From IMG/VR virus record IMGVR_UViG_2718217869_000004: 43,551 nucleotides of DNA; one strand, 5' to 3'. This DNA is from a virus. Taxonomy: Duplodnaviria; Heunggongvirae; Uroviricota; Caudoviricetes. Below, piece after piece: positions 5,937 to 6,358 of the stretch. Both the position numbers and the translations under genes were made by a program. A model generated the notes under the pieces. That model saw only the letters and a list, made by a program, of their open reading frames with translations, was not told the origin of the DNA and did no database searches. How positions within the stretch are numbered: the stretch's first letter is position 1; each line of letters begins with the position of its first letter.

Positions 5937-6358
5937 TTACATCACCGGACAATCATCAAACTCCGCGTTCCTCGCATCATTAATGATGTAAGTAATCACC
6001 CCGAATATCGCGGGAGCAGAACCGTAACCGTCATCATCTACTGGTAGCATCTCCCTTCTCCCGCTCTCCAAATTAATCAGGTGGTGTTGAGGATGAGTCC
6101 GATATCGCTTGATCCTGAACTCCCCGTCGATTGCACATATCAGCAGTGAGCCATCGCAGGCAGTAAGTGACGCATCTACCACAAGCAGCGCCCCCAGGAA
6201 TATTCCTTCCCTGAAATGTGAACGCGATGCCCGCATGAAGTAAGTCGCTGCTGGCTGGCTGGCTGGCTGGCTGGCTGGCTGGCTGGCTGGCTGATAAGAT
6301 GCTGATCGAGTGAGATCCTCGTTTCAACGTAATCGCTGGCCGGTGAAGGGAACCCCAT
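5937..6358 (-). pseudogene. UmuD/ImpA-like (S24 LexA-type peptidase fold) gene, reading frame broken inside a (GCTG)11 tract
   Basis: N-terminal frame MGFPSPASDYVETRISLDQHLISQ(PASQ)n and C-terminal frame ...PAATYFMRASRSHFREGIFLGALLVVD...CAIDGEFRIKR... both align to UmuD but are in different frames on either side of the repeat. Confidence 0.7.
6250..6293. repeat. Perfect tetranucleotide tandem repeat (GCTG)x11 (CAGC on minus strand) inside the UmuD-like coding region
   Basis: Direct read: period-4 identity holds over 44 nt. Confidence 0.95.

Follow-up and report, generated by a model that had tools for sequence, protein, structure and literature searches.

A frameshifted allele of a humD-family gene in the cargo region of an e14-like prophage of Escherichia coli

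The humD locus and its prophage setting

The stretch of DNA analyzed here, referred to below as the window, measures 43,551 nucleotides and corresponds to the IMG/VR virus record IMGVR_UViG_2718217869_000004 (Caudoviricetes). On its minus strand, at 5937-6358, lies a gene of the humD family, assigned by the NCBIfam model NF051876 and by identity to HumD of phage P1, whose product would be a pre-processed analogue of UmuD' and which is out of frame in this copy. The gene starts with an ATG at 6358, and its stop codon occupies 5939-5937. The C-terminal frame on this strand runs through AATYFMRASRSHFREGIFLGALLVVDASLTACDGSLLICAIDGEFRIKRY to a terminal EFDDCPVM; read onward from an internal tetranucleotide repeat, this second frame gives AATYFMRASRSHFREGIFLGALLVVDASLTACDGSLLICAIDGEFRIKRYRTHPQHHLINLESGRREMLPVDDDGYGSAPAIFGVITYIINDARNAEFDDCPVM and terminates at 5939-5937. 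It contains the UmuD-like elements ATYF, AS, LLVVD and IDGEFRIKR, in agreement with an earlier note on this DNA that had recognized a UmuD-like frame by ATYF, LLVVD and IDGEF-x-KR, all of which are present on the minus strand. The window locus is a frameshifted allele of a HumD gene. Here the window is 100% identical to the chromosomes of E. coli Ecol_545 and AH01, and humD is part of the cargo region of an e14/SfV-like prophage, flanked by its pin invertase gene and by the icd' remnant of the attachment site.

Immediately upstream of humD on the same strand (6361-6603) is a conserved gene for an 80-aa protein with no assigned function, orf80, which matches PHROG 3893 (E=1.3e-36) and would be the first gene of the operon. 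Its TAG stop codon precedes the humD ATG by 2 nt (TAG-CC-ATG), an arrangement suggestive of translational coupling. The 80-aa gene has 103 homologues, mostly of 79 aa, and the pair of small gene and HumD-like gene also occurs in E. coli MB20 and SC476 and in Klebsiella and Raoultella. Genes for such proteins of 79-80 aa share an operon with HumD-like genes in E. coli, Citrobacter, Klebsiella, Raoultella and Enterobacter, and many records of the proteins are labeled “DNA polymerase V,” for which there is no evident basis. Considered as an SOS antirepressor of the Gifsy or 186 Tum type, the 80-aa protein had no match in Pfam or NCBIfam, and PHROG 3893 is unannotated.

The divergent promoter region upstream of orf80 measures 74 bp and holds two LexA-box-like sites found by pattern search (6619-6662, minus strand), TGCTGTTTTTTTATCCAGTG at 6619-6638 and TACTGGATGGATACACAGTG at 6643-6662. 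The LexA-box pattern matches three times in the whole window, against 0.32 matches expected, and two of the three are these sites; Nissle, MB20 and Raoultella have comparable boxes ahead of humD. LexA may thus control orf80-humD. On the far side of this region and divergent from it is a dinI-like gene (6678-6920, plus strand), recognized by Pfam DinI at E=1.6e-20 and annotated in RefSeq as “DinI family protein.” At the other end, right after the humD stop, a terminator-like hairpin with a T-run (5910-5929, minus strand) was picked up as a consensus match, of a type that occurs no more often than shuffled expectation. Downstream of humD follow a convergent SRAP/YedK-like gene and IS421. As the earlier note had observed, no umuC/impB-like polymerase gene follows humD: neither a Y-family polymerase nor umuC was found downstream or in the RefSeq annotation of the identical Ecol_545 prophage region. 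IS421, an IS4-family element, interrupts the SRAP/YedK-like gene (SOS response-associated peptidase) in an arrangement that occupies 5448-5936, 4161-5279 and about 3919-4113, all on the plus strand; in strains fEC.1, GF161 and CDF6 the SRAP gene is intact (669 nt).

Several SOS-related genes are gathered in this one prophage, namely the dinI-like gene, humD, the SRAP gene and, in the early region, a 108-aa ORF (33797-34123, minus strand) that holds only the LexA DNA-binding domain (PF01726, E=2.9e-19), without an S24 cleavage domain, and could be a non-cleavable LexA mimic. Within the prophage immunity region, RefSeq also annotates a repressor gene as “LexA family protein.” Beside the pin-type recombinase gene (7049-7636, minus strand) is an invertible tail-fibre segment (7049-9231), with alternative C-termini and assembly genes on both strands and an arrangement that differs in related strains. 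The prophage end is marked by a partial icd duplicate (about 655-822, minus strand), the e14-type attachment site, after which comes an IS200C transposase gene (1-510, minus strand). Between the icd remnant and humD are an HNH endonuclease gene (1264-2232), with HNH matches in PHROG and none in Pfam, and an ORF of 271 aa (2706-3521) with no match in either Pfam or PHROG.

The HumD family and the start at the UmuD cleavage site

Once the repeat is reduced to two units, the window gene encodes a protein of 129 aa; two units restore the ancestral ISQPAATYF reading, at a place where Nissle 1917 and SC476 have a degenerate TCAG+CCCG. The frame-repaired protein scores 217.6 bits (E=3.9e-65) on NCBIfam NF051876 (cutoff 120), a model named “HumD family translesion DNA polymerase,” and the 99-aa C-terminal ORF alone (5940-6236) reaches 154 bits (E=1.3e-45) on the NCBIfam HumD model. 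On the UmuD subfamily model NF007621, the repaired protein scores 92.2 bits, under the cutoff of 110. It is 70% identical over all 129 aa to P1 and P7 HumD, and 66-67% identical to N15 gp26, HK639 gp28 and the phiKO2 protein. As a single sequence it matches the UmuD' structure 1UMU at E=7e-23, and with a family profile the solved UmuD' structures are matched at 3e-27, the homology spanning residues 2-117. We found more than 400 homologues of the HumD-like protein, mostly of exactly 129 aa and themselves beginning at the cleavage site. The dN/dS ratio of the window allele is 0.07-0.09 when compared with the intact Nissle 1917, MB20 and SC476 alleles, and 0.11 when compared with P1 humD, values that show purifying selection. 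This kind of gene is already known, having been described in 1999 and curated in NCBIfam.

The closest of the known systems is HumD of P1 and P7 (McLenigan et al., 1999, J Bacteriol 181:7005, as cited in PMC7092418 and PMC4713147). The window gene shares with it the length of 129 aa, the M-GFPSPA start at the UmuD cleavage site, the lack of a umuC of its own, an upstream LexA box and a divergent SOS gene, a shortened loop (ADSHHREGI in P1, SRSHFREGI in the window), the retained Lys and the EFDDCPV tail. The two differ in that the window gene resides in a chromosomal e14-like prophage, whereas P1 is a plasmid-prophage; in that its divergent partner is dinI-like, whereas P1 has lxr; and in that an extra 80-aa gene separates the LexA boxes from humD in the window, where the copy is moreover frameshifted by the CCAG repeat. 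N15 gp26, HK639 gp28 and the UmuD-like protein of phiKO2 belong to the same family and are likewise pre-processed and encoded after tail-fibre genes without umuC. With E. coli UmuD' (1UMU, 1I4V, 1AY9) the window protein has in common the arm GFPSPAADYVE and the LLVVD and GEF-x-V/I-K strands. However, UmuD' arises from a 139-aa precursor, encoded with umuC, by RecA*-stimulated self-cleavage through Ser60 and Lys97, the Ser lying in G-D-S-M, while HumD is the direct product of translation, with no G-x-S-M, a loop shortened by one residue and 12 additional residues as a C-terminal tail. S24 repressors of the LexA/lambda CI type show distant homology in the S24 domain (E about 1e-5 to 1e-3); unlike them, HumD is without a DNA-binding domain, a cleavage site and G-x-S-M.

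The terminal EFDDCPVM (5940-5963, minus strand) is near-invariant in the HumD family and missing from UmuD, and its DDCP[VI] core is retained even in degenerate Klebsiella and Raoultella forms. The whole C-terminal extension, NDAR..EFDDCPVM (5940-5975, minus strand), is nearly invariant and could be a partner-binding or degradation signal.

At the opposite end of the protein, alignments to UmuD, MucA and HumD delimit an N-terminal arm, M-GFPSPASDYVETRISLDQHLIS (6291-6358, minus strand). The ATG at 6358 is followed by GFPSPA, equivalent to UmuD from Gly25 onward, and the start falls exactly at the Cys24/Gly25 cleavage position. Nothing precedes Gly2 except the initiator Met, and an N-terminal extension with a Cys/Ala-Gly cleavage site is absent. 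GFPSP stands at residue 2 in 100 of the 120 closest database proteins, most of them exactly 129 aa long. The protein would be non-cleavable mainly because its start coincides with the residue after the scissile bond (M+GFPSPA), leaving no N-terminal substrate; it would therefore be translated in the “already cleaved” form, with no need of RecA*-stimulated self-cleavage. The non-cleavable UmuD' mimic proposed in the earlier note thus matches the HumD family, with the reason lying mainly in the position of the start and not in the loss of a Ser. P1 HumD has been characterized as a shorter, already activated version of UmuD (PMC7092418, citing McLenigan et al., 1999), and the P1 record (GenBank AF234172) states that HumD functionally complements E. 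coli UmuD' and annotates a LexA site.

The CCAG repeat and the reading frame

The tetranucleotide repeat within humD (6250-6293) was detected by TRF with 100% matches and consists of 11 GCTG units on the plus strand, equivalent to (CCAG)10 at 6290-6251 in the coding direction. The tract lies within codons 23-26, and the frame shifts after the N-terminal arm to yield a product that ends at a stop at 6178-6176. The unit numbers that keep the frame are 2, 5, 8 and 11, and the window has 10; as long as the tract stays at 10 units, no HumD would be made from this copy, and humD in the window strain may have no function at all. A decayed pseudogene with further lesions, which the earlier note had named as one of two findings that would overturn its reading, is not what the sequence holds: the repeat is the only lesion in the window humD, with no secondary lesions.

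Tract lengths of 7, 8, 8, 10, 10, 12, 12 and 13 units were counted in complete genomes, in two metagenome contigs and in one IMG/VR contig, the 13-unit allele being present in three related isolates. A scan of genome contigs for the repeat plus its flank gave no match, and viral and metagenome scans added only three alleles. The 8-unit allele (strain fEC.1 and metagenome contig OGYH01010872) retains an intact ORF of 137 aa that scores 207 bits on the HumD model and in which SQPASQPA is inserted where the N-terminal arm passes into strand 1. The tract derives from a degenerate two-unit stretch, seen as TCAG+CCCG in Nissle and SC476 and as TCAG+CCCA in MB20.

These alleles raise the question of adaptive phase variation, in which the CCAG tract would be an ON/OFF contingency switch for HumD and thereby for fast SOS mutagenesis. 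The feature that characterizes SSR contingency genes, an intragenic repeat whose unit number varies among close relatives with a change of frame, is present at this locus. Genomes and contigs with different unit numbers have the same 704 flanking nt, apart from one base in the IMG/VR contig; alleles both in and out of frame occur, the 8-unit in-frame allele keeps its full HumD score, and the OFF alleles are without secondary lesions. However, only two of the eight alleles are in frame, as expected from neutral slippage, which would leave one third in frame; the alleles are extremely recent, so that their undecayed state says little; and only one narrow lineage acquired the tract, the degenerate two-unit stretch being what Nissle, MB20 and SC476 have instead. 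No relevant precedent for phase variation by tetranucleotide repeats in E. coli prophages came up in a literature search. On balance, we consider an adaptive origin of this variation unlikely, and the corresponding claim, that the humD gene of this e14-like lineage carries a reversible CCAG switch of a RecA-cleavage-independent activator of Pol V, distinctly doubtful. If true, it would place a simple-repeat contingency locus, rare in E. coli, over mutagenic translesion synthesis and within a module of multiple SOS genes.

The RefSeq call “S24 family peptidase, frameshifted” begins at 6474, inside the upstream gene (6474-5937, minus strand), and an identical call has been made on SC476 (L024, 1707-2212), a strain with two intact genes and without the repeat. 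A reading of the PGAP pseudogene call as the sign of an extra frameshift was rejected, the call being applied also to the intact SC476 allele. In Salmonella there are read-through chimeras of orf80' and HumD (P0017, of 167 aa with 427 member sequences, and P0018, of 223 aa), and the miscall may stem from chimeric references such as these. The RefSeq annotation is misleading for this prophage family, in which the real lesion of the window is a polymorphic tetranucleotide repeat.

The RSHF motif, the Ser-Lys dyad and the role of HumD

The RSHF codons, which take the place of the UmuD (G)DSM active-site motif in an ambiguous register, are read from 6224 to 6213 (6213-6224, minus strand), and the codon of Lys73 in GEFRIKR, equivalent in the alignments to UmuD Lys97, is an AAG at 6110-6108 (6108-6110, minus strand). 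The canonical G-x-S-M is absent, the local sequence being S-R-S-H-F, the Lys is kept, and the loop that connects the strand ATYFMRA to GI lacks one residue relative to UmuD. To say that RSHF replaces GDSM presumes an ungapped alignment; where the gap is placed decides which residue faces Ser60. In a phmmer alignment of the single sequence, it is the His; in MAFFT, with nine sequences, and in hmmsearch with a 91-sequence family profile, it is the Ser of RSHF; and in hhalign, with the HumD profile set against 40 canonical UmuD-like proteins, the gap falls at Ser60 itself. Four alignments thus give three gap positions. Column conservation, with a small residue, a variable one, S/T and H/Y in HumD facing G, a variable residue, S and M/L in UmuD, favours the Ser in register with Ser60. 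AlphaFold2 run on the 91-sequence HumD alignment, a shallow one (hhalign Neff 1.7), returned a mean pLDDT of 41.8, too low to place the active site. The broken G-x-S-M signature is firm; for the Ser, the alignments are ambiguous and neither demonstrate nor exclude that it is in register. Accordingly, the earlier note was right that the Lys of the dyad is retained and that the canonical motif is missing, but its conclusion that the Ser is lost does not hold in the two of four alignments (MAFFT and family HMM) that put a Ser opposite Ser60, and holds in the other two (phmmer and hhalign); both Ser36 and Lys73 are present in the repaired protein.

The motif is not peculiar to the window. The family consensus at this site reads x-[S/T]-[H/Y]-[F/Y]-R-E-G-[I/V], with H37, R39, E40, G41 and K73 each at least 90% conserved in the close family and position 36 S or T in nearly all close relatives; the exact string ASRSHFREGI is the commonest state (42 of the 120 closest proteins). 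RSHF prevails in the E. coli/Citrobacter prophage clade, and intact 129-aa alleles with RSHF occur in Nissle 1917, MB20 and SC476, some of them named HumD in RefSeq. RSHF thus reads as the normal state of the clade and not as decay, being conserved in intact homologues such as Nissle 1917. In Klebsiella and Raoultella prophages (L018, 4197-4568; L021, 4242-4550), a degenerate HumD-like protein of about 102-108 aa follows the same small gene, scores only 36 bits on the HumD model, and still has a GFPSPAADY arm and a DDCP[VI] tail, with the whole ATYF...REGI (SHFREGI) active-site segment missing.

The wider family was surveyed by a profile search of 1.84 billion cluster representatives, which gave 1,326 relatives at E<=1e-10. 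Class counts were taken from the best 150 of these 1,326, kept if N-terminus, Ser site and Lys site were all aligned. In this sample, none of the 36 representatives of 50% clusters that start at the cleavage site (M+GFPSP) has GxS[ML], and 14 have the Lys, as against 44 of 65 with GxS[ML], 51 of 65 with the Lys and 44 of 65 with both among relatives that have an N-terminal extension of at least 10 residues. Among the cleavage-site starters, the position equivalent to the Ser is occupied by T, S, A, N, H, D, R, P, I, Y or V, and where the Lys is replaced, it is by R, C, V, L, M, Q or N. The N15, HK639 and phiKO2 set has G-A-T-H-Y or S-T-Y-L at the motif, with Thr and not Ser (Thr in N15 stands at the Ser position), and HK639 has Met at the Lys position; these Thr and Met states show the dyad to be dispensable in the HumD family. 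Losses of the cleavable N-terminus and of the catalytic signature coincide, which supports a non-cleaving mimic for the HumD family, whose catalytic constraint would be relaxed because no cleavage is needed. For the window protein itself, loss of catalysis is probable by extension from the wider family.

It could be argued that HumD is still an active S24 protease, whose Ser36/Lys73 dyad acts in trans, with host UmuD, LexA or the repressor of the prophage as possible substrates. One UmuD molecule can cleave another, Ser36 lies opposite UmuD Ser60 in MAFFT and in the family HMM, Lys73 is at least 90% conserved, and S or T stands at position 36 in nearly all close relatives. Nevertheless, the N15-type subclade has Thr for Ser, the wider pre-processed relatives vary at both the Ser and the Lys sites, neither the Gly nor the Met of G-x-S-M remains, the loop is shortened, and phmmer and hhalign leave the Ser out of register; we regard activity in trans as very improbable. 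The idea of a functionless remnant, a 5'-truncated umuD with a degenerate active site left over from a lost umuDC operon, is scarcely credible and largely refuted by the family data, for although RefSeq labels the gene “S24 family peptidase, frameshifted,” umuC is absent and the adjoining SRAP gene is split by IS421, against it stand the more than 400 homologues, mostly 129 aa long with a start codon of their own at the cleavage site, the dN/dS of 0.07-0.09, the gene's own predicted LexA boxes and operon partner, and the presence of the same PGAP label on the intact, repeat-free SC476 allele.

Very probably, the locus is a humD gene, coding for a pre-processed analogue of UmuD', that an e14/SfV-like prophage inserted at icd in E. 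coli carries as cargo at its right end. By this account, LexA would be cleaved upon DNA damage, releasing the two LexA boxes at 6619-6662 from repression, and the orf80-humD operon and the divergent dinI-like gene would then be transcribed. P1 HumD reportedly dimerises and binds UmuC and RecA filaments; by analogy, HumD of the window clade would dimerise and partner host UmuC and the RecA filament, and UmuC with HumD would then carry out Pol V-type translesion synthesis and mutagenesis without the delay of converting UmuD to UmuD'. The S24 Ser-Lys dyad would thereby be freed from catalytic selection, and G-x-S-M could have changed to x-[S/T]-H-[F/Y] (RSHF here) in a loop one residue shorter. 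Partnership with UmuC, LexA control and the absence of protease activity are what we infer for HumD of the window clade from its sequence and from P1 HumD, the protein for which complementation is known and which is 70% identical to that clade.

As a discovery, the observation has little significance, the odd motif being normal for the E. coli/Citrobacter prophage clade: the earlier note essentially rediscovered HumD, by way of a shaky argument from the Ser, and only the repeat polymorphism and the orf80 partner are mildly new. DinI inhibits RecA*-mediated UmuD cleavage, and one may speculate that the pairing of dinI with humD could move control of translesion synthesis to the prophage. For the family at large, the coupling of motif and start (0 of 36 against 44 of 65) amounts to a natural experiment for a dyad that would serve self-processing only.
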